Positions 2,957-61,675 of a stretch of DNA of 64,000 nt are shown here, one piece after another. A model generated the notes under the pieces. The model searched no databases. It had not been told where the DNA came from and saw only the letters and a list, made by a program, of their open reading frames with translations. Every line of letters starts with the position of its first letter. Within the stretch, counting starts at the first letter, position 1. This DNA is from Myxococcales bacterium (GTDB lineage: Bacteria; Myxococcota_A; UBA9160; SMWR01): assembly GCA_013215605.1 (NCBI GenBank), contig JABSQW010000044.1, positions 5,532 through 69,531 on the forward strand, written 5' to 3'. The position numbers and the translations under genes were made by a program.

Positions 2957-4099
2957 GTGTCGACCGACAGCGTCAGCCCCTTCCGTATCCATGCCACGGA
3001 CGCCGAGCTCGAGGATCTGAAGCGACGGCTTCGGGCGACGCGCTGGCCCGAGCACGAAACCGTGGACGACTGGTCCCAGGGGATCCCCCTCGCCTACGTC
3101 CAGGAAATCGCCAGCTATTGGGCCGAGACGTACGACTGGCGCGCGCGCGAAGCGCGCCTCAACGCGTTCCCACAGTTTCACACCGAGATCGACGGTTGTG
3201 CCATTCACTTCGTTCACGTTCGCTCGCCCCACGAGGACGCGCTGCCCCTCTTGATCACCCACGGTTGGCCCGGGTCGATCGTCGAGTTCCAGGAGGTGAT
3301 CGGTCCGCTCAGCGATCCCACGGCCCACGGCGGCGCTGCCCGCGACGCCTTTCACGTCGTCTGTCCTTCGCTACCGGGCTACGGCTTCTCGGGAAAACCC
3401 AGCGCCACGGGTTGGGACGGGCGGCGGATCGCCGACGCCTGGGGTGTGTTGATGCAGCGCCTCGGCTACTCGCGCTACGTCGCCCAGGGCGGCGACTGGG
3501 GCGCTCTGGTCACGACCTGCATCGGCCACCAGGATCCGAAACACTGCGCGGCGATCCACCTCAACATGCCCATGGTACCGCCGGACCCCGAGACGAAGGA
3601 CGATCTGACGCCCGCCGAGCAGGCGAGCCGCGCAGCCATGCTGGAGCATCGCCGATGGGGCACGGGCTACTCGAAGCAGCAGAGCACGCGGCCCCAGACA
3701 CTCGGCTACGGACTCGTGGACTCGCCCGCGGGCCAGGCGGCCTGGATCCTCGAGAAGTTCTGGGCCTGGACCGACTGCGACGGCCACCCCGAGAACGCTC
3801 TCACGCGCGACCAGCTGCTGGACAACGTCATGCTCTACTGGCTACCCGGGACGGGAGCCTCGTCCGCGCGTCTCTACTGGGAGAGCTTCCGAAAGCCGCC
3901 CCGGGACCCGGTCCAGGTTCCCGTCGGCTGCAGCATCTTTCCGAAGGAGATCCTCTACACGTCGCGGCGCTGGGCCGAGAAGCACTTCGGCTCCCTGCTG
4001 TATTGGAACGAGCTCGAGCGCGGCGGGCACTTCGCGGCCTTCGAGCAGCCCGCGATCTTCGTGGACGAGCTTCGAAACTGCTTTCGCCCGCTGCGCTAG
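2957..4099 (+). CDS. epoxide hydrolase (alpha/beta hydrolase with N-terminal EHN domain)
   Basis: PFRIHATDAELEDLKRRL...RWP N-terminal epoxide-hydrolase domain, HGWPGS oxyanion motif and GGDWGA nucleophile elbow. GTG 2957 with GGAGG 6 nt upstream is preferred; the ORF-track start at 2909 is the alternative. Confidence 0.9.
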   Translation: MSTDSVSPFRIHATDAELEDLKRRLRATRWPEHETVDDWSQGIPLAYVQEIASYWAETYDWRAREARLNAFPQFHTEIDGCAIHFVHVRSPHEDALPLLITHGWPGSIVEFQEVIGPLSDPTAHGGAARDAFHVVCPSLPGYGFSGKPSATGWDGRRIADAWGVLMQRLGYSRYVAQGGDWGALVTTCIGHQDPKHCAAIHLNMPMVPPDPETKDDLTPAEQASRAAMLEHRRWGTGYSKQQSTRPQTLGYGLVDSPAGQAAWILEKFWAWTDCDGHPENALTRDQLLDNVMLYWLPGTGASSARLYWESFRKPPRDPVQVPVGCSIFPKEILYTSRRWAEKHFGSLLYWNELERGGHFAAFEQPAIFVDELRNCFRPLR

Positions 4100-5177: not shown

Positions 5178-6827
5178 ATGCGCGAAGAGACGTTCGACAT
5201 CGTCGTCGTCGGGGGCGGCGTCACGGGGTGCGGTGTGGCTCTCGACGCGTGCACCCGGGGTCTGTCGGTCGCGGTGATCGAGAAACGGGACTTCGGTGCG
5301 GGCACGTCGAGTCGGTCGAGCAAGCTCATCCACGGCGGACTCCGCTACCTCGAGCAGCTCCACTTCGGACTCGTGCGAGAGGCGCTCACCGAGCAGTCGC
5401 TGCTGCTGGAGCGTCTGTGTCCGCATCTCGTGCGGCCCGTTCCCTTCCTCTTCCCACTCACCCGCCGCGGCTGGGAGCGGCTGTACATCGGTGCCGGTGT
5501 CCTGCTGTACGACCTCCTTGCCAGCCCGCGTGCGCTGCCCCGCCACCGGCACCTCTCACGCCGCGCGGCGCTCGTCGAGTTCCCGTCGCTGCGCGGGGAC
5601 GCACTCGTCGGCGCGATCCAGTACTGGGACGCGCAGATCGACGACGCCCGCCACACGATGACGTTGGCGAGGACGGCCGCTGCCCACGGAGCCGCCGCAG
5701 CCACGAGCCTGCGCGCCGTGGGATTCCCCACGGAGACTCAACGCGTGGTCGGCGTCGAGGCGCGTTGCCTCGAGACCGGCGAGAACCTCGTGGTGAGGGG
5801 GCGCCAGATCATCAACGCGTCGGGCGTGTGGTCCGAGGAAGTGCGCGACCTCTCGAGTGACGGCCCCCTGCGCGTGCGCGCGTCGAAGGGCATCCACCTG
5901 CTCGTGCCGCGCGACCGCATCACGTCGCAGTCGGGTCTCATCGCGCGGACGGCGAGCAGCGTGCTGTTCGTGATCCCGTGGAAAGAGCACTGGATCATCG
6001 GCACCACCGACACCGCCTGGGAGCTCGACAAGGATCACCCTGCGGCCAGTCGCGTCGACATCGACTACCTGCTCGCCACCGTGAACGACTGGCTGCACTC
6101 TCCACTCGGTTACGAAGACGTGGTGGGCGTGTACGCCGGTCTGCGGCCTCTCCTCCACGGGGAGGACGATTCTACGAGCCAACTCTCGCGCGAGCACGCC
6201 GTCACCACCGCGAAGTCGGGTCTGATCAGCATCGCGGGCGGGAAGTACACCACGTACCGCGTGATGGCGAAGGATGCAGTGGACGTCGCGGCGGGGCGTC
6301 TCGGGCGCAGCGTTCCGGCATCGAAGACGGATCACACGCCGCTCGTCGGTGCGCTGGGCTTCGAAGCGTGCAAGCAGCGCCGCGAGGAACTCGCCGCCAC
6401 ACTCGGCGTCCGCCCCGACGACGTCGACCGTCTGCTCGGCCGCTACGGCGACGCGATCGAGGAACTCGTCGCCCTCGTGAAGTCGCGGCCGGACCTCGCG
6501 TCCCCCATCGACGGAGCCGAGGCCTATCTGTGCGTCGAGGCCGCGTACGCGGTGAGCCACGAGGCCGCCCTGCACGTCGACGACGTCCTCACGCGCCGCA
6601 CCCGAATCTCCATCGAAACACCGGACCGCGGAGTCAGCGCGGCGCGAACGGTCGCCGACCTCATGGCCCAGACCCTCGGCTGGGACGACGCCACCCGTGA
6701 CCGTGAGCTCGAACACTATGACGCCCGCGTCGCGGCCGAGCGCGAATCGCAGGAGCAGCCCAACGACCGCACGGCCGACGCCGCCCGCCTGGGCGCCCCG
6801 GACGTTCGCACCTCGGGCTCCCCCTAG
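5178..6827 (+). CDS. glpD: FAD-dependent glycerol-3-phosphate dehydrogenase
   Basis: FDIVVVGGGVTGCGVALDA dinucleotide fold, SSRSSKLIHGGLRYLE, and the long C-terminal GlpD-type domain. ATG 5178 (MREETFDIVVVGGG) is preferred; the ORF-track start at 5079 is the alternative. Confidence 0.9.
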   Translation: MREETFDIVVVGGGVTGCGVALDACTRGLSVAVIEKRDFGAGTSSRSSKLIHGGLRYLEQLHFGLVREALTEQSLLLERLCPHLVRPVPFLFPLTRRGWERLYIGAGVLLYDLLASPRALPRHRHLSRRAALVEFPSLRGDALVGAIQYWDAQIDDARHTMTLARTAAAHGAAAATSLRAVGFPTETQRVVGVEARCLETGENLVVRGRQIINASGVWSEEVRDLSSDGPLRVRASKGIHLLVPRDRITSQSGLIARTASSVLFVIPWKEHWIIGTTDTAWELDKDHPAASRVDIDYLLATVNDWLHSPLGYEDVVGVYAGLRPLLHGEDDSTSQLSREHAVTTAKSGLISIAGGKYTTYRVMAKDAVDVAAGRLGRSVPASKTDHTPLVGALGFEACKQRREELAATLGVRPDDVDRLLGRYGDAIEELVALVKSRPDLASPIDGAEAYLCVEAAYAVSHEAALHVDDVLTRRTRISIETPDRGVSAARTVADLMAQTLGWDDATRDRELEHYDARVAAERESQEQPNDRTADAARLGAPDVRTSGSP

Positions 6828-23079: not shown

Positions 23080-23239
23080 GCACCAACACTACCCCACACG
23101 CCGCGCCATCCGGGTCACGCCCAGGCCCGAACCCCCGTGGGGGGAAGCCCGAGCCGGCGTCACGCAGCGCGCCGCTCGAAGGACGACACGTCGCCCGCGG
23201 CCCGAATGCTCGCGAGGGACGCGTCTGCCGGAACCGGCT

Positions 23240-28522: not shown

Positions 28523-29433
28523 GCCTCCGCCCCGCTCCGTCCATCTGCGCGCGGTCGCCAGCCGCGCGTGCGCAGCTCGGCCACGAACGTCGCAAACTGC
28601 GGGGCGGTCAACACTTCGGCGCGGACGCCGGCATCGACCCCGGCTGCTGCCAGCGCTGCGCGGACGTCTTCGGCGGCAACCGGCGGATCGAGGCCCCCGC
28701 GCAGGGCGTTCGCGAGCGTCTTGCGTCGTGTCGAGAACGCCGCCCGCACGACGATCTCGAAGCCCGCCATTTCGGCCGGGGTCACGATCGGATCGTCGAT
28801 CGGAGTCAGTCGGAGGAAGCTCGAACGAACCTTCGGAACCGGGTAGAAGTGGTTCGGAGAGATGCCGAGCTTCCGATCGACGCGGACCGCGGAGTGGTGC
28901 AGCACGGTCAGCGAACTGTAGTCGCGTGTTCCCGCCGTTGCGACGAGGCGATCCGCCACCTCGCTCTGCACCATCACCGACCAGTCTTCGAGCGCTTCGC
29001 GGAGATCGAAGACGCAGCGCAGCAGTGGACCGGTGACCGAGTACGGCAGGTTCGCCACGAGACGCACCGGGCCCTCGACTGAGGCGACGATCGCTTCGAG
29101 GTCGACGTCGAGGACGTCGCCGTGGACGAGCTCGACGTTGTCGGGAAGGAGCGCCTCCGAACGCAACGCCCTGACGAGTCCCGCGTCGACTTCGATGGCC
29201 ACGACCCGTCGCGCGCGCTTCGCGAGTGCCAAAGTAAGCTGACCGAGACCCGGGCCGATCTCGACCACCGTATCGTCGGGCGAAACGCCGGCCGCCGCGG
29301 CGAGGCGCTCCGCCATGGTGGCGTCGACGAGGAAGTTCTGACCCAATCGCGGGTTGGGACGAAGACCGTGACGCTCGAGGAAGCCGCGAACCCCGGCGCG
29401 AGAGATCGGCGCTATTCCGGCGTCGGCGCCCAC
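28519..29433 (-). CDS. rsmA: 16S rRNA (adenine1518-N6/adenine1519-N6)-dimethyltransferase RsmA/KsgA
   Basis: GLRPNPRLGQNFLVD...VVEIGPGLGQLT...NLPY motifs. The start is uncertain. GTG 29433, overlapping the tsaD 3' end, is the nearest canonical start; the ORF-track start at 29547 is too long. Confidence 0.88.
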   Translation of the reverse strand: MGADAGIAPISRAGVRGFLERHGLRPNPRLGQNFLVDATMAERLAAAAGVSPDDTVVEIGPGLGQLTLALAKRARRVVAIEVDAGLVRALRSEALLPDNVELVHGDVLDVDLEAIVASVEGPVRLVANLPYSVTGPLLRCVFDLREALEDWSVMVQSEVADRLVATAGTRDYSSLTVLHHSAVRVDRKLGISPNHFYPVPKVRSSFLRLTPIDDPIVTPAEMAGFEIVVRAAFSTRRKTLANALRGGLDPPVAAEDVRAALAAAGVDAGVRAEVLTAPQFATFVAELRTRGWRPRADGRSGAEA

Positions 29434-30440
29434 GGCGCGGCCTCGATGGGCACCCGGGAGAACGAGTTGAGCTCGAGGCCGTGGCGTTCTCCGCCGACCA
29501 GTAAGCGGGTTCCGGCGCTCGCGATCATCGCCGCGTTGTCGGTGCACAACTCCGCGGGCGGAAACGTGACGCGAAAGCCGTCGTCTCTACCGGCGCGCGC
29601 CATGTCTGCGCGCAGGCGCCGGTTTGCCGCGACACCCCCCACCACGGCCACCTCGCCGAGGCCCTCCGCGCGAATCGCCTTGCGCGCCCGCGCCACGAGG
29701 ACGCCGATGGCCGCGGCCTCGAAGGACGCCGCGACGTCGGCGACGTCCTCTTCACCGAGCGCACCGCGCCGCTCCACCTCGAGCGCGACCGCGGTCTTGA
29801 GACCGCTGTACGAGAAGTCGAGGCCGTCGCGATTCAACATCGGTCGGGGAAACGCGATCGCATCGTCGCGGCCGCGCGTGGCCGCCTGCGACACGGCGGG
29901 CCCACCCGGGTAGGGGAGACCGAGCAGCACCGCGACCTTGTCGAACGCCTCGCCGACCGCGTCGTCGCGCGACGTCCCGAGCAACGCCGGAGCGCCCTGC
30001 TCCTCCACGCGGTACAGCGACGTGTGGGCTCCCGACGCCACGAGCCCGATGTACGGCGCTGACAGATCCGGGTCCGCGAGCTCCGCGGATGCGAGGTGCC
30101 CGGCCAGGTGGTGCACCCCGACCACCGGCACCCCCAGCCGATACGCCAGAGACTTGCCAAACGACAGCCCCACCAGCAGCGACCCCACGAGGCCGGGCCC
30201 GGCGGTCACGGCGACGCCATCGACCTCCTCGAGTCCCACCGCCGCCGTGCGGAACGCCTCCTCGACCACCGCCGACACCACCCTGACGTGATCACGCGAC
30301 GCGAGCTCCGGTACTACGCCCCCGTACGGCGTGTGTACGTCCACCTGCCCGCGAACCACACTCGACAGGATCTCGATCCCGTCGCGCACGAGTGCCGCGG
30401 CCATTTCGTCGCAGGAGGACTCGATACCAAGAACGAGCAT
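29412..30440 (-). CDS. tsaD: tRNA N6-adenosine threonylcarbamoyltransferase TsaD
   Basis: MLVLGIESSCDEMAAALV..., HHLAGH metal motif and GGVAAN. ATG 30440 is preferred; the longer ORF to 30695 is rejected. Confidence 0.95.
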   Translation of the reverse strand: MLVLGIESSCDEMAAALVRDGIEILSSVVRGQVDVHTPYGGVVPELASRDHVRVVSAVVEEAFRTAAVGLEEVDGVAVTAGPGLVGSLLVGLSFGKSLAYRLGVPVVGVHHLAGHLASAELADPDLSAPYIGLVASGAHTSLYRVEEQGAPALLGTSRDDAVGEAFDKVAVLLGLPYPGGPAVSQAATRGRDDAIAFPRPMLNRDGLDFSYSGLKTAVALEVERRGALGEEDVADVAASFEAAAIGVLVARARKAIRAEGLGEVAVVGGVAANRRLRADMARAGRDDGFRVTFPPAELCTDNAAMIASAGTRLLVGGERHGLELNSFSRVPIEAAPWAPTPE

Positions 30441-30513
30441 GACGGGGGAGCATAGCGGCGTCGCGCCCCGCGGAGCCGAGACTGCCCCGGGTTCGGGCCA
30501 CGAACGCGGCCGA

Positions 30514-30585
30514 CGCGCGCAGCGAGGCGAAGCCGAGCGAAGGCTGGCAGCTGGGCTCTGCCCGCCGAACCCCAGCCGAACTACC
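30514..30585 (-). repeat. intergenic repeat element copy abutting the dksA TAG stop
   Basis: Gene-sense strand reads GGTAGTTCGGCTGGGGTTCG...GGCAGAGCCCAGCTGCC...CTTCGCTCGGCTTCGCCTCGCTGCGCGCG. The first 20 nt are identical to the copy at 41255..41274. The core is shared with copies at 39728, 39811, 44199 and 61275. Confidence 0.7.
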
Positions 30586-37362: not shown

Positions 37363-37557
37363 ACGCGCCGGCGGTTTCCCCCGCGGGCCCGGGCGCGCGA
37401 ACGCTGGCCGTTCGCGCCACAGGCCCCTGGCGGCGAACGTCCGCTCGCTGCGGACCACGGTTCCGACGCTCGCTGGCCTTCGGCCCCGTAAACTCCTAGC
37501 CTTGTTAGCGATTCCCGTTCCGGCGCAGGATGCGCACAACGCGCGGACGCGAACGGC

Positions 37558-39028: not shown

Positions 39029-39727
39029 GTGAACGGCATGCCGACGGCCGATCGCCCGATGCTCTTCATTCCCCCGGAGCCGCCGCTCGCCCTGCGGCCG
39101 GACGCGACGCTCGTGATCGGGCGGAGCCGCAGCTGTGACCTGCGCCTGCCCACGGGCGACGCGTCGCGCCGTCACGCAGAGATCATCCACTCCGAGGGCA
39201 GCTATTGGGTCCGCGACCTCGCGAGCACCAACGGCACATACGTCAACGGGACGCGCATCACCGAGCACAGCCTCGCCGCCGGCGACCGCATCGAGATCGG
39301 CTCGAGTGAGATTCGCTACTGCCAGGTCGGTGCCGGCCTCGACGAAACCCCGTCGATGAGCGACATCGAGACCGGCGAGGCGAAGACGATCATCGCGGAG
39401 CGCCCCGCGTTCCAGGTGTTCCGTGGCGAGCTCGCCGAGATTCCGCCCTTCGCCGTCCTCCAGATTCTCGAGATGGGCCGCAAGACGGGCATCCTGAAGC
39501 TCGAGACCGACCAGGGAGTCGGAACCCTCTGGTTCGCAGAGGGCGCGCCCGTGCACGCCGAGTCGAAGAACCAGATCGGCTTCGACGCGGCGCTCACGAT
39601 CATCCAGGCCTCGGCGGGTCAGTTCACCTTCGAGCCGCTCACGACCGCTCCGGAACCCACCATCGCGGCGTCGGTCACGGAGCTGTTGCTCGAGGCGTCG
39701 CGGCTGCTGGACGAGGCGATTCTCTAG
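39029..39727 (+). CDS. FHA domain protein with C-terminal DUF4388-like domain
   Basis: FHA core LVIGRSRSCDLRL...ASRRHAEI......WVRDLASTNGTYVNG. The C-terminal LAEIPPFAVLQILEMGRKTGILKLE...GTLWFAEG resembles DUF4388. The start may be ATG 39038. Confidence 0.8.
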   Translation: MNGMPTADRPMLFIPPEPPLALRPDATLVIGRSRSCDLRLPTGDASRRHAEIIHSEGSYWVRDLASTNGTYVNGTRITEHSLAAGDRIEIGSSEIRYCQVGAGLDETPSMSDIETGEAKTIIAERPAFQVFRGELAEIPPFAVLQILEMGRKTGILKLETDQGVGTLWFAEGAPVHAESKNQIGFDAALTIIQASAGQFTFEPLTTAPEPTIAASVTELLLEASRLLDEAIL

Positions 39728-39855
39728 CTTTCCGGGCTTCGCTCGCCTACGGCTCGCTGCGCGGCGGCCCGGAGAGCTCGTTCCGGGACCGATGGAGGCG
39801 GCTGGCCGGTCTTTCCGGACTTCGCTCGCCTGCCGCTCGCTGCGCGGCGGCCCGG
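39728..39855 (+). repeat. two tandem 45-nt copies of the dispersed intergenic repeat (period 83 nt)
   Basis: 39728..39772 CTTTCCGGGCTTCGCTCGCCTACGGCTCGCTGCGCGGCGGCCCGG and 39811..39855 CTTTCCGGACTTCGCTCGCCTGCCGCTCGCTGCGCGGCGGCCCGG (42/45 identical). The first copy starts immediately after the TAG stop of the FHA gene. Confidence 0.85.
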
Positions 39856-39869
39856 TGGGCCGCCTTGCT

Positions 39870-41129
39870 TCAATCGCTCGAGAAAACCGGGAACTCGGAG
39901 CGGATGGCTTCGCGGACGGCTCGATCGATGCCATCGGTGTCGAGGCCCACGGCCTCGACGAGCGCCCGGTCGGAACTCGCTCCGTTGCCAAGGCGCATGA
40001 GCAACCGGCGGCGCGCGGCGCGGTCGGTGTGGGCATCGATCCAGGCGGCTGCGGCCGTGGCCTCGAGATAGGCGACCCGCGCGTCGCTGTTGTCGAGACC
40101 GGAGAAGCTCGGAGCCAGCCGCCGGAGAGGGATCCAGCTGCCCTCGTCGATGCGGATATGCAGGCTGACGCGCTCGCTGCGCGTGAGACCGTCGTGGCTC
40201 AGATCCTCGCGCTCGGAGAGCTCGGCGAGCCCCTCATTCAGCCAGAACGGGCGATCGCCCCCCGTCTGCTCGCGGAACATCGCGTGCGTGTATTCGTGGA
40301 ACAACAGGTCGCGCAGCTCGCGCTCAGGGTGGGCGGCGGAGACCACGTGGATGCGCCCGTCGAAGAACCCGACGGTCTGGAACGAGAAGCGGTGGCGATG
40401 GGCCCGCAGGTACGCGGCCTTGCCGTACAGCACGACGCCCATCGGCTCCTCGGGGGTGACGCCGAGGCCCTCACCCACGCGAATCCTTGCGCGTTCGAGG
40501 AAGCCGACCACGATCTCGGAGTAGTGGGGAGACGCGCGACCGAGCTCCGAGTCGAAGCTCACGCGGAAGTGCGGGCTCTCGAGATCGACGAACGAACCCG
40601 GACCGCGCTCGATCGACTCGTCGGCGAGGTGCCGCTCATCCGACAGCACCTCGAGTCGACGCTCGGCCTGGACGCGCCACGGCTGGAGGTCGTCGCCGGC
40701 GGACGCCAGGAAGAAGCGCAGGTGGGTCTCCGAAGAATCGAAGCGGCCGCGGTGCCGGTCGAGTTCGGCCAGGTACCAGTGGGCCTTTGCGTTCGCGGGG
40801 GATGTGCGCAGGACGCTCTCGAGCGCAGCGGCGGCGCGACCGCGCTCGCCGCGTTCCATGTCCGCAACCGCGCCGTGGACCAGGCGCTCGTCGCGTCCCG
40901 TGGTTCCGCCCACCGAAGCGGCGCGCTCGCCCTTCGGGCCATCCACGTGGTCCCAGAGGCCGCCGAGATTCCGCGCCCGGGCACCGGCCCCCTCGAGCGA
41001 ATCCGGCGGCACCGCGCTGCGGTCGTCCGTGATGTGCGTGACGCCGGAAACGTCGACCCAGACGAAGGTCTCGGCTCCAGCAGGAACGGAGAGGAGCCAG
41101 CAGACCGCAGCACAGACACGAAGGCGCAC
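39870..41129 (-). CDS. secreted DUF4124/TPR-like protein with peptidase-MA-like HExxH domain
   Basis: Signal peptide MRLRVCAAVCWLLSVPAGA, then TFVWVDVSGVTHITDD (DUF4124-like). LLFHEYTHAMF plus a downstream NEGLAELSE gives a gluzincin-like arrangement. Confidence 0.6.
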   Translation of the reverse strand: MRLRVCAAVCWLLSVPAGAETFVWVDVSGVTHITDDRSAVPPDSLEGAGARARNLGGLWDHVDGPKGERAASVGGTTGRDERLVHGAVADMERGERGRAAAALESVLRTSPANAKAHWYLAELDRHRGRFDSSETHLRFFLASAGDDLQPWRVQAERRLEVLSDERHLADESIERGPGSFVDLESPHFRVSFDSELGRASPHYSEIVVGFLERARIRVGEGLGVTPEEPMGVVLYGKAAYLRAHRHRFSFQTVGFFDGRIHVVSAAHPERELRDLLFHEYTHAMFREQTGGDRPFWLNEGLAELSEREDLSHDGLTRSERVSLHIRIDEGSWIPLRRLAPSFSGLDNSDARVAYLEATAAAAWIDAHTDRAARRRLLMRLGNGASSDRALVEAVGLDTDGIDRAVREAIRSEFPVFSSD

Positions 41130-41194
41130 GAGCTTCTCTTCGGAGGAGTGGCGCTTCAGATTGAACGAACGGCAGGGCGACCTGCCCGCCCGCG

Positions 41195-41274
41195 CACGCG
41201 AAGCGCGCAGCGAAGCTGAAGGCTGTCAGGCGGGCATGTGGGCTTCCGGCCCGGCGAACCCCAGCCGAACTACC
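41195..41274 (-). repeat. intergenic repeat element copy abutting the moaB TAG stop
   Basis: Gene-sense strand reads GGTAGTTCGGCTGGGGTTCG (41274..41255, identical to 30585..30566) followed by ...CAGCCTTCAGCTTCGCTGCGCGCTTCGCG. Confidence 0.7.
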
Positions 41275-42626: not shown

Positions 42627-43412
42627 ATGGCGGCACGAAAGAAGAAGACGACCAGGAAGACCGCTCGCCGCGGGAATGTGAAGAAGAAGACCGCCCGAAA
42701 GACGGTCCGCAAGAAGGCGCCGCGGCGCGGCGCTCGCAAGGCCGCTGCGAAGAAGAAGACGTTGCGCCGCAAGAAGGCCACCACCAGGAAGACCACGCGC
42801 AAGAAGTCCACCCGCAAGAAGGCGACGCGGAAGAAGACCGCCCGAAAGAAGACAGCAAAGAAGAAGGCCAGCCGGAAGCCGGCGACCCGGAAGAAGACGG
42901 TCCGCAAGAAGGCGACTCGCAAGAAGGCCACCCGAAGGAAGACCGCTCGAAAGAGCTCGCGGAAGAAGGCCGCGTCGAAGAAGTCGACGCGGCGCAAGGT
43001 CGCAACCCGCAAGAAGGCCTTGGCCACCGCGCGAAGGACGGCGTCGAAGAAGACCGCGCGGCGCAAGACGACGACGCGCGCCGCGGCGCCGAAGCCGGTC
43101 CGAAAGCCGGTGCCCGCCACCAAGGCGCCCACGCCGGCGACTTCGCTGGCGGCCCGGCTGCCCGAGCGAATCGGGCAAGTGACCCACTACTTCGCCGGGG
43201 CGGGTGCCGCGATCGTGGACGTGGAGCAGGGAGAGTTGAGGCGCGGCGACACGATCCACGTCCGCGGGCACACGACCGACTTTTACCAGCGTGTCGAGCG
43301 AATCGAGGCAGACCACATCGAAGTGACTTCAGCGAGGGCGGGTCAGCGGGTGGGCGTGCAGGTCTCGCAGCGAGTACGTGAGGGAGACGACGTCATCCGG
43401 GTCTCGGGCTGA
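42627..43412 (+). CDS. polybasic histone-H1-like repeat protein with C-terminal EF-Tu-domain-2-like beta-barrel
   Basis: The first ~170 aa are about 20 degenerate (S/T)RKK(A/T)-type repeats (K+R are roughly half of residues). The C-terminal ~85 aa IGQVTHYFAGAGAAIVDVEQGELRRGDTIHVRGHTTDFYQRVERIEADHIEV...GQRVGVQV...REGDDVIRV resembles stand-alone translation-elongation-factor-like barrel proteins. Confidence 0.75.
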   Translation: MAARKKKTTRKTARRGNVKKKTARKTVRKKAPRRGARKAAAKKKTLRRKKATTRKTTRKKSTRKKATRKKTARKKTAKKKASRKPATRKKTVRKKATRKKATRRKTARKSSRKKAASKKSTRRKVATRKKALATARRTASKKTARRKTTTRAAAPKPVRKPVPATKAPTPATSLAARLPERIGQVTHYFAGAGAAIVDVEQGELRRGDTIHVRGHTTDFYQRVERIEADHIEVTSARAGQRVGVQVSQRVREGDDVIRVSG

Positions 43413-44140: not shown

Positions 44141-44245
44141 GCGGAACCCACCTCGTGCAGGCGAACGAAGTTCGAAAGGGCAAGGCCTCCGACCCCCGGG
44201 CCGGCGGCCGCGCGGTGAGCCGTAGGCGAACGAAGTTCGAACGAA
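44141..44245 (-). repeat. repeat-family copy with duplicated palindromic 17-mer in the bactofilin/holB divergent region
   Basis: GGCGAACGAAGTTCGAA occurs at 44150..44166 and 44215..44231, each containing CGAAC-GAA-GTTCG. 44199..44225 GCGCGGTGAGCCGTAGGCGAACGAAG matches the family core GCGCAGCGAGCCGTAGGCGAGCGAAG. Confidence 0.65.
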
Positions 44246-61226: not shown

Positions 61227-61274
61227 CTCACGCCGCTAGCACGCGGATGCTTCCGACCCGCAAGCACGGAGCGC

Positions 61275-61342
61275 GCGCAGCGAGCCGAAGGCGAGCGTAG
61301 AACGGGTCAATCTGGGCTCCGCCCAGATTGGGACCTCGTAAA
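61275..61342 (-). repeat. intergenic repeat element copy abutting the erpA TAG stop
   Basis: Gene-sense strand after TAG reads TTTACGAGGTCCCAATCTGGGCGGAGCCCAGATTGACCCGTTCTACGCTCGCCTTCGGCTCGCTGCGCGCGC. This is the 9-bp hairpin CAATCTGGG/CCCAGATTG followed by the family core. Confidence 0.7.
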
Positions 61343-61675
61343 CTAAGCGGCGAAGGACTCGCCGCACCCGCAGGTGGTGCTCGCGTTGGGATTGACCATC
61401 TTGAAGCCCGATTCGTTGAGCGTGTCGACGAAATCGAGCGTGGTTCCGACGAGGTAGAGAGCGCTCTTCTCGTCAACGATCACGCGAACACCGTTGCGCT
61501 GAATCTCGTTGTCGTTCTCCGAGATCTGGTCGTCGAAGGCGAGCTCGTAGCGCAGCCCGGAGCAGCCACCTCCCACCACTTTGAGGCGCAGGCCGTGGGT
61601 CTCGGTCTTGGATTCCTTCTCGAGCAGCTCGAGGATCCGCTCGGCGGCGATGTCAGTGACTTCGATGAGGGCCAT
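61343..61675 (-). CDS. erpA: iron-sulfur cluster insertion protein (IscA/ErpA, HesB family)
   Basis: 110 aa from ATG 61675. LRLKVVGGGCSGLRY and the C-terminal NPNASTTCGCGESF give the three conserved Cys. The ORF-track extension to 61909 is rejected. Confidence 0.93.
   Translation of the reverse strand: MALIEVTDIAAERILELLEKESKTETHGLRLKVVGGGCSGLRYELAFDDQISENDNEIQRNGVRVIVDEKSALYLVGTTLDFVDTLNESGFKMVNPNASTTCGCGESFAA

Follow-up and report, generated by a model that had tools for sequence, protein, structure and literature searches.

A dispersed two-hairpin repeat between the genes of uncultured soil Myxococcota

Two nearly identical sequences lie in tandem between a pair of convergent genes at nt 39728–39870 of a 64,000 nt stretch of Myxococcales bacterium DNA (contig JABSQW010000044.1, positions 5,532 to 69,531; the window, below), and raise the question of what kind of element they are and how they came to be there. 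The sequences 39728–39777 and 39811–39860 are 90% identical across 50 nt. The original prediction of two tandem 45 nt copies, 42/45 identical, was confirmed, as was the start of the first copy immediately behind the TAG stop codon of a gene for a forkhead-associated (FHA) domain protein. Both belong to a genuine family of structured repeats that has apparently not been described before. Its general kind is familiar; what sets it apart is the architecture, in that both stems are of the mini-hairpin type, the internal loops are invariant, one stem is hypervariable and the arrays are direct. The element is best read as an interspersed repeat resembling the repetitive extragenic palindromic (REP) sequences, and it probably spreads at the DNA level, possibly by means of a trans-acting mobilising enzyme.

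The 27 nt core of the repeat, with up to three mismatches allowed, was found five times in the window, at 30516–30542 (−), 39737–39763 (+), 39820–39846 (+), 44209–44235 (−) and 61274–61300 (−), and not once in 100 dinucleotide-preserving shuffles; the similarity thus survives comparison with shuffled controls. A covariance model run over the window with filters off returned the same five at 35–50 bits (E ≤ 2.6e-7), the next match being at 14.4 bits (E = 0.045). A profile search again gave these five, together with a fragment at 44157–44178 (E = 0.04) and a weak match at 41195–41223 (E = 1.4). The window holds exactly five significant copies (39728–39767, 39811–39870, 30513–30551, 44178–44244 and 61258–61309), about one per 13 kb, plus one fragment and one plausible remnant. 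The copies predicted after dksA and erpA are both present (35.3 and 49.5 bits by the covariance model). In the divergent region between the bactofilin gene and holB, the predicted copy is real but was misplaced at 44199–44225: its core occupies 44209–44235 on the minus strand, with a 14 nt fragment at 44157–44170. Behind moaB there is no full copy but a plausible remnant of the 3′ half (19/20 to TCGCTGCGCGCTTCGCTTGC); the covariance model gives E = 0.3 for 41192–41230. Two further partial copies, proposed at about 37430 and 23150, are at chance level: 37430–37488 has E = 2.6 by the covariance model, and neither the profile search nor the covariance model matched 23150–23200.

The anatomy of the unit was worked out by lining up 159 copies, using as reference the strand written in the original prediction, and 150 of them were aligned to the covariance model for pair counts. 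The unit is about 45–75 nt long and consists of a loosely conserved 5′ flank of about 8 nt (information fades past position −9), the 27 nt core, an insert of 2 to more than 40 nt, and the motif CTTGC, which is present in 138/159 copies and replaced by CTAGC in six more; additional 5′ modules are optional. The consensus can be written CTYCGCTCGSCTNCGSCTCGCTGCGCG...CTTGC. It folds as two adjacent hairpins, P1 and P2, 1 nt apart. P1 has a 2 bp base (G5-C21, C6-G20), an invariant 2×2 internal loop, a 3 bp top (G9-C17, S10-S16, C11-G15) and a T-N-C triloop. P2 starts with G23-C and C24-G, followed by a 2×2 internal loop, G27-C and then a variable stem, so that its base reads GCGCG...CTTGC. In the original prediction the core was taken for a direct duplication of CGCTCGC rather than a hairpin. 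Compensatory changes show two hairpins instead, and the apparent duplication arises because the arms of the neighbouring hairpins are similar.

Core positions 9–11 and 15–17 were left free by the search pattern, so their covariation was not imposed. They read GCC...GGC in 103 copies and GGC...GCC in 47, and are unpaired in only nine. In the 16 gap-free copies, 99% of the cells are paired, six pairs change on both sides, and the covariation score was unreached in 500 shuffles. Over the 150 aligned copies, 98.2% of pair cells are paired, with 183 cells changed on both sides, and sliding the partners by 1–3 columns reduces pairing to 19–54%. The C6:G20 pair becomes T:A in two of these copies, one being the window copy at 44209. 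Among 95 P2 inserts of 7–35 nt, 77 are distinct; the Watson–Crick run, counted from the outside in, averages 3.07 compared with 0.54 after shuffling, and 60% pair along their full length. Almost every insert is a perfect palindrome around a 3 nt centre (TTC in 24, TGC in seven, AAG in five, and others). Five pairs of the P2 upper stem each switch from CG to GC. The unpaired positions are near-invariant, with TC/TC in 148/150 copies, GC/TT in 132/150, and a P1 loop of the form TNC (TGC, TTC, TAC or TCC) in 144/150. Even within one genome, the P2 stem varies in sequence and length while remaining perfectly paired, and the rest of the unit barely changes. This contrast within single copies is real, and points either to strong selection for nothing but shape or to a mode of copying that regenerates palindromes. 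A coding repeat was rejected, as the array periods (about 42, 46, 59 and 83 nt) do not keep to multiples of three and P2 lengths vary freely.

The tandem pair, designated units A and B, is made up as follows.

39725–39727 (+): TAG stop of the FHA and DUF4388 gene (39029–39727; domains by Pfam); unit A begins at the next base
39728–39736 (+): 5′ flank of unit A, weakly conserved (CTTTCCGGG); repeat comparison and covariance model
39737–39763 (+): 27 nt core of unit A, CTTCGCTCGCCTACGGCTCGCTGCGCG, without mismatch to the consensus (39.2 bits); P1 (G5-C21, C6-G20, TC/TC internal loop, GCC-TAC-GGC) lies within it, as does the 5′ side of the P2 base (GCGCG)
39764–39810 (+): remainder of unit A; the first 9 nt (GCGGCCCGG) are common to unit B, then come another imperfect hairpin, GGCCCGGA...TCCGGGACC, and a spacer
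39811–39819 (+): 5′ flank of unit B (CTTTCCGGA); repeat comparison and covariance model
39820–39846 (+): 27 nt core of unit B, with one consensus mismatch (G15 to C) that breaks one pair of the P1 upper stem
39847–39863 (+): variable upper stem-loop of unit B P2, GCGGCCC-GGT-GGGCCGC, 7 bp; covariance model and folding
39864–39868 (+): 3′ motif CTTGC of unit B, closing the P2 base against GCGCG; conserved, and the pairing is supported by the aligned copies
39870–39872 (−): TGA stop (TCA on the plus strand) of the convergent TPR/peptidase-MA-like gene (39870–41129), one base past CTTGC

Unit A lacks CTTGC and so is incomplete or degenerate at its 3′ end, while unit B (39811–39868) is complete apart from the one broken P1 pair. 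Since unit A abuts the FHA stop and the peptidase stop lies one base past CTTGC, the two units fill the entire 142 nt convergent gap. The same CTTGC-T-TCA junction is seen at the dksA stop in L040, one of the genomic stretches carrying the repeat.

The strand opposite to the reference is purine-rich and reads GCAAG-(stem-GNA-stem)-CGCGCAGCGAGSCGNAGSCGAGCGRAG. Read this way, each hairpin ends in a GNA triloop with a C-G closing pair, the internal loop of P1 becomes a tandem G·A/A·G set in CGAG, and the shortest common form of P2 contains GCGAAGC. It is the more stable strand in 124/150 copies by RNA parameters and in 134/150 by DNA parameters. In single-stranded DNA, mini-hairpins of the type GCGNAGC, which contain a sheared G·A pair, show exceptional stability (PMC13037366; PMC3201870), and the purine-rich strand of the repeat would be expected to form such GNA mini-hairpins. 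The resemblance to d(GCGNAGC), as described by Hirao and co-workers, extends to both hairpins, since P1 (GSC-GNA-GSC) and the commonest P2 forms (such as GCGAAGC) match its C-GNA-G loop and sheared G·A pair (PMC13037366); that mini-hairpin is a structural motif and not a genomic repeat family, and its formation here is predicted from sequence. The P2 upper stem is 94% Watson–Crick, with G:T in only four of 454 cells. Unlike most structured RNAs, it makes almost no use of G:T, which fits DNA pairing better than RNA pairing, a soft argument.

The distribution of the family was surveyed by scanning one genome per species (GTDB) with the pattern CGCTCGSCTNCNNCTCGCTGCGCG, taking eight-kb stretches around matches. 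The same core occurs in at least 120 stretches (labelled L001–L120) from about 45 metagenome-assembled genomes among the matches listed, bearing out the prediction of a dispersed intergenic repeat, and the covariance model gave 162 + 31 matches. Carriers among the matches listed are nearly all labelled Myxococcota, Myxococcales or 'delta proteobacterium', and the repeat is confined to a clade of uncultured soil Myxococcota with high-GC genomes. Complete long-read genomes such as CAWHTE01, CAVPRM01, CAVQUJ01 and CBDFGR01 are among those that contain it. A 'Myxococcales bacterium' genome bin encodes a protein with 100% identity to the window's FHA protein. Many carriers are labelled 'uncultured Spirochaetales' (binchicken bins; L004, L006, L009, L010, L013, L017, L040 and others), a label that is likely wrong for L040, and possibly for others, given the synteny between L040 and the window (about 70% identity). 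Pattern matches in Longimicrobiaceae (inside an IS3 element), in one Pseudomonadota stretch and in one Solibacteraceae stretch lack CTTGC, lie mostly within genes, and do not belong to the family. In the IS3-family element of Longimicrobiaceae (L007, 6419–6445; L085, 1050–1076), the match is the arm of another hairpin and a chance look-alike. A single Mycobacterium pattern match was reported by neither nhmmer nor the covariance model and was taken as chance. Three IMG/VR contigs classed as viral, which may be prophages of Myxococcota or else host DNA wrongly classified, carry the unit (L125, 337–392, 49.8 bits; L127, 4688–4743, 49.8 bits; L126, 7525–7569, 32.9 bits); these are three of 2.9 million viral contigs, and a phage origin was rejected on that count. 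Rfam gave no window match at gathering thresholds, and a permissive Rfam search of 39700–39900 reached at best 13.7 bits, for a family whose gathering threshold is 45 bits. A search of a literature library found neither the core sequence nor anything relevant on REP sequences and their associated tyrosine transposases (RAYTs) in Myxococcota.

Genes were called by a codon-position GC method (coding fraction 87.5%), and 150 of 170 copies (about 88%) are intergenic, with most of the 20 'intragenic' ones lying 5–40 nt from a gene end. The neighbours are housekeeping genes. Intergenic regions with the repeat comprise 65 co-directional, 23 convergent and 12 divergent cases, whereas those without it are 61% co-directional, 10% convergent and 28% divergent (p = 4e-6 to 6e-5, according to the expectation used). 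Copies thus favour the 3′ ends of genes and avoid divergent promoter regions. Among the arrays between co-directional genes, 22 have the reference strand in sense orientation and 43 have it in antisense (p = 0.0125). Arrays contain two or three units spaced at about 42–105 nt, and of the pairs of neighbouring copies 48 are direct and two inverted. The inverted doublets, the only ones seen, are both in L042, where two composites of about 260 nt (3018–3250 and 6381–6597), each built from two units placed tail-to-tail on either side of a partly palindromic stretch of about 110 nt, lie in the intergenic regions flanking the ruvB-ruvA-ruvC-yebC operon.

Orthologous sites differ in their content. 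The tsaD-dksA gap of the window holds a single minus-strand copy; in L040 (about 70% identical) there are two, both facing the other way. L063 carries copies where the orthologous site of L047 is a gap of about 25 nt. Three relatives with the same gene order and 65–74% protein identity have an FHA-peptidase gap of 38–89 nt with unrelated sequence, and no copy was found anywhere in the 18.7 kb from these three. One of these gaps (L121) contains a plain 17 bp palindrome. In L123 (about 2360–2495), a tandem repeat of about 46 nt, in at least 2.5 copies, takes in the 3′ end of the FHA ortholog together with the stop codon; this repeat is unrelated to the family under study and may be genuine or a product of misassembly. 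A given subfamily can be found at several unrelated loci of one genome, as with the 'aaa' P2 type with flank gcccaccYgatggt in CAWHTE01. The placement, mixed orientation and differing orthologous sites indicate a dispersed DNA repeat that is gained and lost, rather than a signal tied to particular genes.

How such a repeat might spread can be outlined as follows. Once single-stranded, the purine-rich strand would fold into a pair of highly stable mini-hairpins that carry C-GNA-G triloops and the tandem G·A loop, and a trans-acting enzyme would read the hairpin shape together with the invariant unpaired bases. This enzyme would most likely be a single-strand-specific transposase of the HUH/Y1 type or a comparable recombinase. 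Tandem duplication could multiply the unit locally as well, and selection may exclude copies from genes and promoters, so that they accumulate right behind stop codons. The near-invariance of the unpaired positions makes it plausible that a protein binds the unit. Folding of the purine-rich strand in single-stranded form, with recognition by an HUH/Y1-type or similar single-strand-specific enzyme, is put forward only tentatively, as a possibility that falls short of the case for spreading at the DNA level as such. In the FHA/peptidase gap, the units could double as a transcript-end hairpin in both directions, which would be a side effect and not the cause of their conservation.

Several observations weigh against a mobile repeat of this kind. 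When the 867 predicted proteins of the sampled loci (about 0.9 Mb) were clustered, only housekeeping families recurred, and no transposase. Searching the same DNA around the copies by phmmer, with E. coli RayT and IS200 TnpA sequences as queries, gave nothing below E = 0.6, in a sample where the expected yield is below one. No GTAG or CGTC tag is fixed in the consensus, and inverted doublets are rare, with two pairs in one genome. Conservation of the core is partly due to the way copies were found, since both the pattern and the model require it. Folding-energy z-scores of individual window copies are unremarkable, at −1.0 to +1.7, and are uninformative for single copies because the DNA is 68% GC. 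The 43:22 orientation bias could reflect an RNA function. Local GC skew, taken as a proxy for the replication strand and noisy at 8 kb, showed no significant relation to orientation (77/139, p = 0.23).

RNA function is the main rival to spreading at the DNA level. The hairpins would then act in the transcript, as 3′-end or intercistronic stabilisers, as terminators or as the site of an RNA-binding protein, and the units would be kept for this function and spread by ordinary duplication. Enrichment at 3′ ends and depletion between divergent genes would be expected of such an element, copies often abut stop codons on either side, the loops and internal loops are strand-specific and invariant, and the better-folding purine-rich strand is the sense strand of the flanking co-directional genes in 43/65 arrays. 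One third of the copies between co-directional genes nevertheless have the opposite orientation, the orientation is flipped at the orthologous dksA site, and orthologous sites in relatives lack the repeat. The stems almost never use G:U, there is no U-tract and no terminator-like match, and no Rfam family matches. On balance, an RNA element appears unlikely, although it is the best placed of the alternatives. The same facts bear on the 3′-UTR (untranslated region) module of fixed sense orientation that had been suggested originally: the same-orientation pattern holds within the window and is lost across the family (22 sense, 43 antisense), the copy is flipped at dksA in L040, three relatives have none at the FHA locus, and no T-run follows. 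An intrinsic terminator in particular was rejected, as no T-rich sequence follows CTTGC and no window copy has a terminator-like match; a scan of the window copies for promoter and terminator consensus sequences found nothing.

A narrower form of the mobile-repeat reading would make the unit a folded single-stranded DNA substrate of an unrecognised Myxococcota recombinase or transposase that reads the two GNA-triloop mini-hairpins and the internal loops. Each round of mobilisation or replication would then form P2 anew, by hairpin-templated synthesis or template switching and not by slow compensatory mutation. This specific proposal is speculative and, taken whole, rather improbable.

A different possibility is that the repeat is a site in duplex DNA for a nucleoid-associated or regulatory protein, with the 27 nt core as its recognition sequence. 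E. coli bacterial interspersed mosaic elements (BIMEs) bind integration host factor (IHF) or gyrase. Intergenic location and high copy number would suit such a site, as would a core that is near-invariant even at positions unpaired in the hairpin model. Binding to duplex DNA, however, has no need of compensatory CG-to-GC swaps or of a perfectly paired stem of arbitrary sequence and length, nor would it explain a strand-asymmetric loop, in which TNC is present and GNA never occurs on the reference strand. Such a site is quite improbable as the explanation of the family.

The original prediction also pointed to the adjoining TAG stop codons, and to a miniature inverted-repeat transposable element (MITE) with a TA/TAG target as one possibility. 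TGA was said to look like the commonest stop in the window, but by our own gene calls there are 30 TAG, 29 TGA and no TAA. Such a frequency of TAG is unusual for a 68% GC genome; in related genomes it is 37%, rising to 45% among the highest-scoring genes. Pooled over the sampled loci, stops are 37% TAG, 57% TGA and 6.5% TAA at every gene-score threshold tried. The four real copies that lie behind genes in the window all follow TAG, with a chance probability of about 0.07, but across the family the all-TAG pattern does not hold: among stops within 60 nt of a copy, TAG accounts for 47/90 (52%) compared with a background of 36.7% (p = 0.003), and nearly half are TGA. The association is a mild enrichment and not a rule, and arises in part because units abut or supply the stop. 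TAG directly follows CTTGC in 6/140 copies, CTAG flanks some units, and in the window genome a 26 nt module starting GGTAG contains the stops of both dksA and moaB. These TAG counts, and a 5′ module that begins with GGTAG at two sites, are what speaks for a MITE, which is very improbable: the unit is far shorter than typical MITEs, has no terminal inverted repeats (its ends, CTTCGC... and ...CTTGC, show direct similarity), no consistent target-site duplication (flank identity 3.39 versus 3.23 bases), negligible flank complementarity (3.37 versus 3.15) and no positional TA/TAG duplication, and almost half of the adjoining stops are TGA.

The statement that this is no clustered regularly interspaced short palindromic repeat (CRISPR) array, insertion sequence (IS) end or classical REP was borne out, as there is no array, no IS- or MITE-like inverted-repeat end and no REP tag. 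Sets of two or three units without uniform unique spacers, and copies dispersed singly, exclude CRISPR. REP doublets forming hairpins (REPINs) were rejected on the 48 direct against two inverted neighbours, the window pair being direct, and integron attC sites on a consensus without R″/R′ sites (RYYYAAC/GTTRRRY) and on neighbours that are housekeeping genes.

Compared with known systems, the family is nearest to the REP/BIME sequences of Enterobacteria and Pseudomonas, which are mobilised by RAYTs. Like them, it is a short, GC-rich, hairpin-forming, extragenic sequence of high copy number, concentrated after gene 3′ ends, found in both orientations, in clusters and in genome-specific subfamilies, and varying in presence between relatives. 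Its covarying hairpins, largely intergenic location (about 88%) and five copies per 64 kb agree with the description of a REP as a short imperfect palindrome that is extragenic and present in many copies. It differs in that the REP foot tag GTAG/CGTC is not fixed, GTAG arising only through the free loop base or the GGTAG module. Each unit has two dissimilar hairpins with invariant internal loops and one hypervariable stem, arrays are direct and tandem (48/50 neighbour pairs) instead of alternating or inverted doublets, and no RAYT gene was found near copies in the roughly 0.9 Mb sampled. The tail-to-tail units of L042, a composite of about 260 nt seen twice and flanking ruvCAB-yebC, recall REPINs, but this inverted arrangement is the exception here (2/50 neighbouring pairs).

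Palindrome-associated transposable elements and the ends of IS200/IS605 elements share with the repeat two structurally similar subterminal hairpins on the same strand, and recognition of their shape plus a few unpaired bases of single-stranded DNA would fit the conservation pattern of the repeat. No full-length parent with tnpA or tnpB was seen in the present data, and the hairpins are separated by 1 nt instead of bounding a longer element. Integron attC sites function as folded single strands. They resemble the repeat in having conserved short flanks around a stem in which pairing is conserved but sequence and length are not; the repeat lacks the R′/R″ consensus (GTTRRRY) and is accompanied by neither an integrase nor cassette arrays. 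A modular build, in which extra 5′ modules may precede the core and the number of units varies, is shared with the BOX elements of Streptococcus pneumoniae and with RIME-type mosaics, but these are unrelated in sequence and host phylum, and the units described here are much smaller.

The remaining copies in the window, with their modules, are as follows. The names given to the flanking genes in the original prediction (FHA, DksA, MoaB-like, ErpA-like, bactofilin, HolB, cytochrome c) were right.

30513–30551 (−): copy after dksA; core 30516–30542, with the P1 variant GGC...GCC (35.3 bits)
30493–30515 (−): imperfect hairpin following the core of the dksA copy; there is no CTTGC
30560–30585 (−): genome-specific 5′ module GGTAGTTCGGCTGGGGTTCGGCGGGC, which includes the dksA TAG stop (30581–30583) and is followed by a GGGC-AGA-GCCC hairpin and then the core
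44178–44244 (−): copy in the bactofilin/holB divergent region; core 44209–44235 with a compensated T6:A20 pair (44.1 bits)
44180–44208 (−): P2 upper stem (44185–44208) and CTTGC (44180–44184) of this copy
44157–44178 (−): truncated second unit directly downstream of this copy, with the 5′ flank and the first 14 nt of the core (CTTCGTTCGCCTGC); E = 0.041
61258–61309 (−): copy after the erpA-like gene; core 61274–61300 (49.5 bits)
61260–61273 (−): short P2 insert, CGCTCCGTG (61265–61273), and CTTGC (61260–61264) of this copy
61308–61330 (−): optional upstream hairpin module CAATCTGGGC-GGA-GCCCAGATTG, between the erpA-like stop (61343–61345) and the core
41194–41213 (−): probable degenerate remnant of the 3′ half, after moaB; 19/20 to the consensus and alone not significant
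41249–41274 (−): second copy of the 5′ module, GGTAGTTCGGCTGGGGTTCGCCGGGC, which includes the moaB TAG stop (41270–41272)

The 26 nt module GGTAGTTCGGCTGGGGTTCGSCGGGC at 30560–30585 and 41249–41274 (both minus strand) is 96% identical between its two sites, starts two bases before the TAG of dksA and of moaB, and is followed by a GGGC...GCCC hairpin and then by the core at dksA or the remnant at moaB. Among the DNA sampled, it was found in the window genome only. It is mainly because the moaB site and the dksA copy have this module in common that the moaB remnant is credible. A GGGC-N3-5-GCCC hairpin lies upstream of 9/159 copies, compared with 1/159 in a control window. Two other features of the window were noted in passing. 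Beside the bactofilin gene, a 261-aa open reading frame (42627–43412, +) has a first part of about 170 residues that is rich in lysine, arginine and threonine and repeats with a 15 nt (5-aa) period (...RKKATRKKTARKK...). ARAGORN called a 90 nt tRNA-Pro(CGG) at 29926–30015 (−), which is probably false as it lies inside the TsaD gene (29412–30440; Pfam E = 1e-85).

The mild association with TAG, together with the very high TAG usage of the genomes that carry the repeat, is of interest in its own right. With the consensus, structure and covariance model, genomes of the poorly known soil Myxococcota in which the repeat is abundant can be masked or annotated, sites prone to assembly problems flagged and membership of the lineage marked, and the covariance model helps to avoid mistaking copies for gene-specific regulatory RNAs. 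Three features, namely unpaired bases that do not vary, a stem strictly paired but unconstrained in sequence, and mini-hairpin loops on one strand only, make the family a clean case for studying how hairpin repeats are recognised and copied, and equally for finding the enzyme responsible. Should the unit prove to be a folded single-stranded substrate in which P2 is rebuilt, it would represent a new class of structure-specified mobile DNA site, with a logic nearer to that of integron attC sites than to that of classical REPs.

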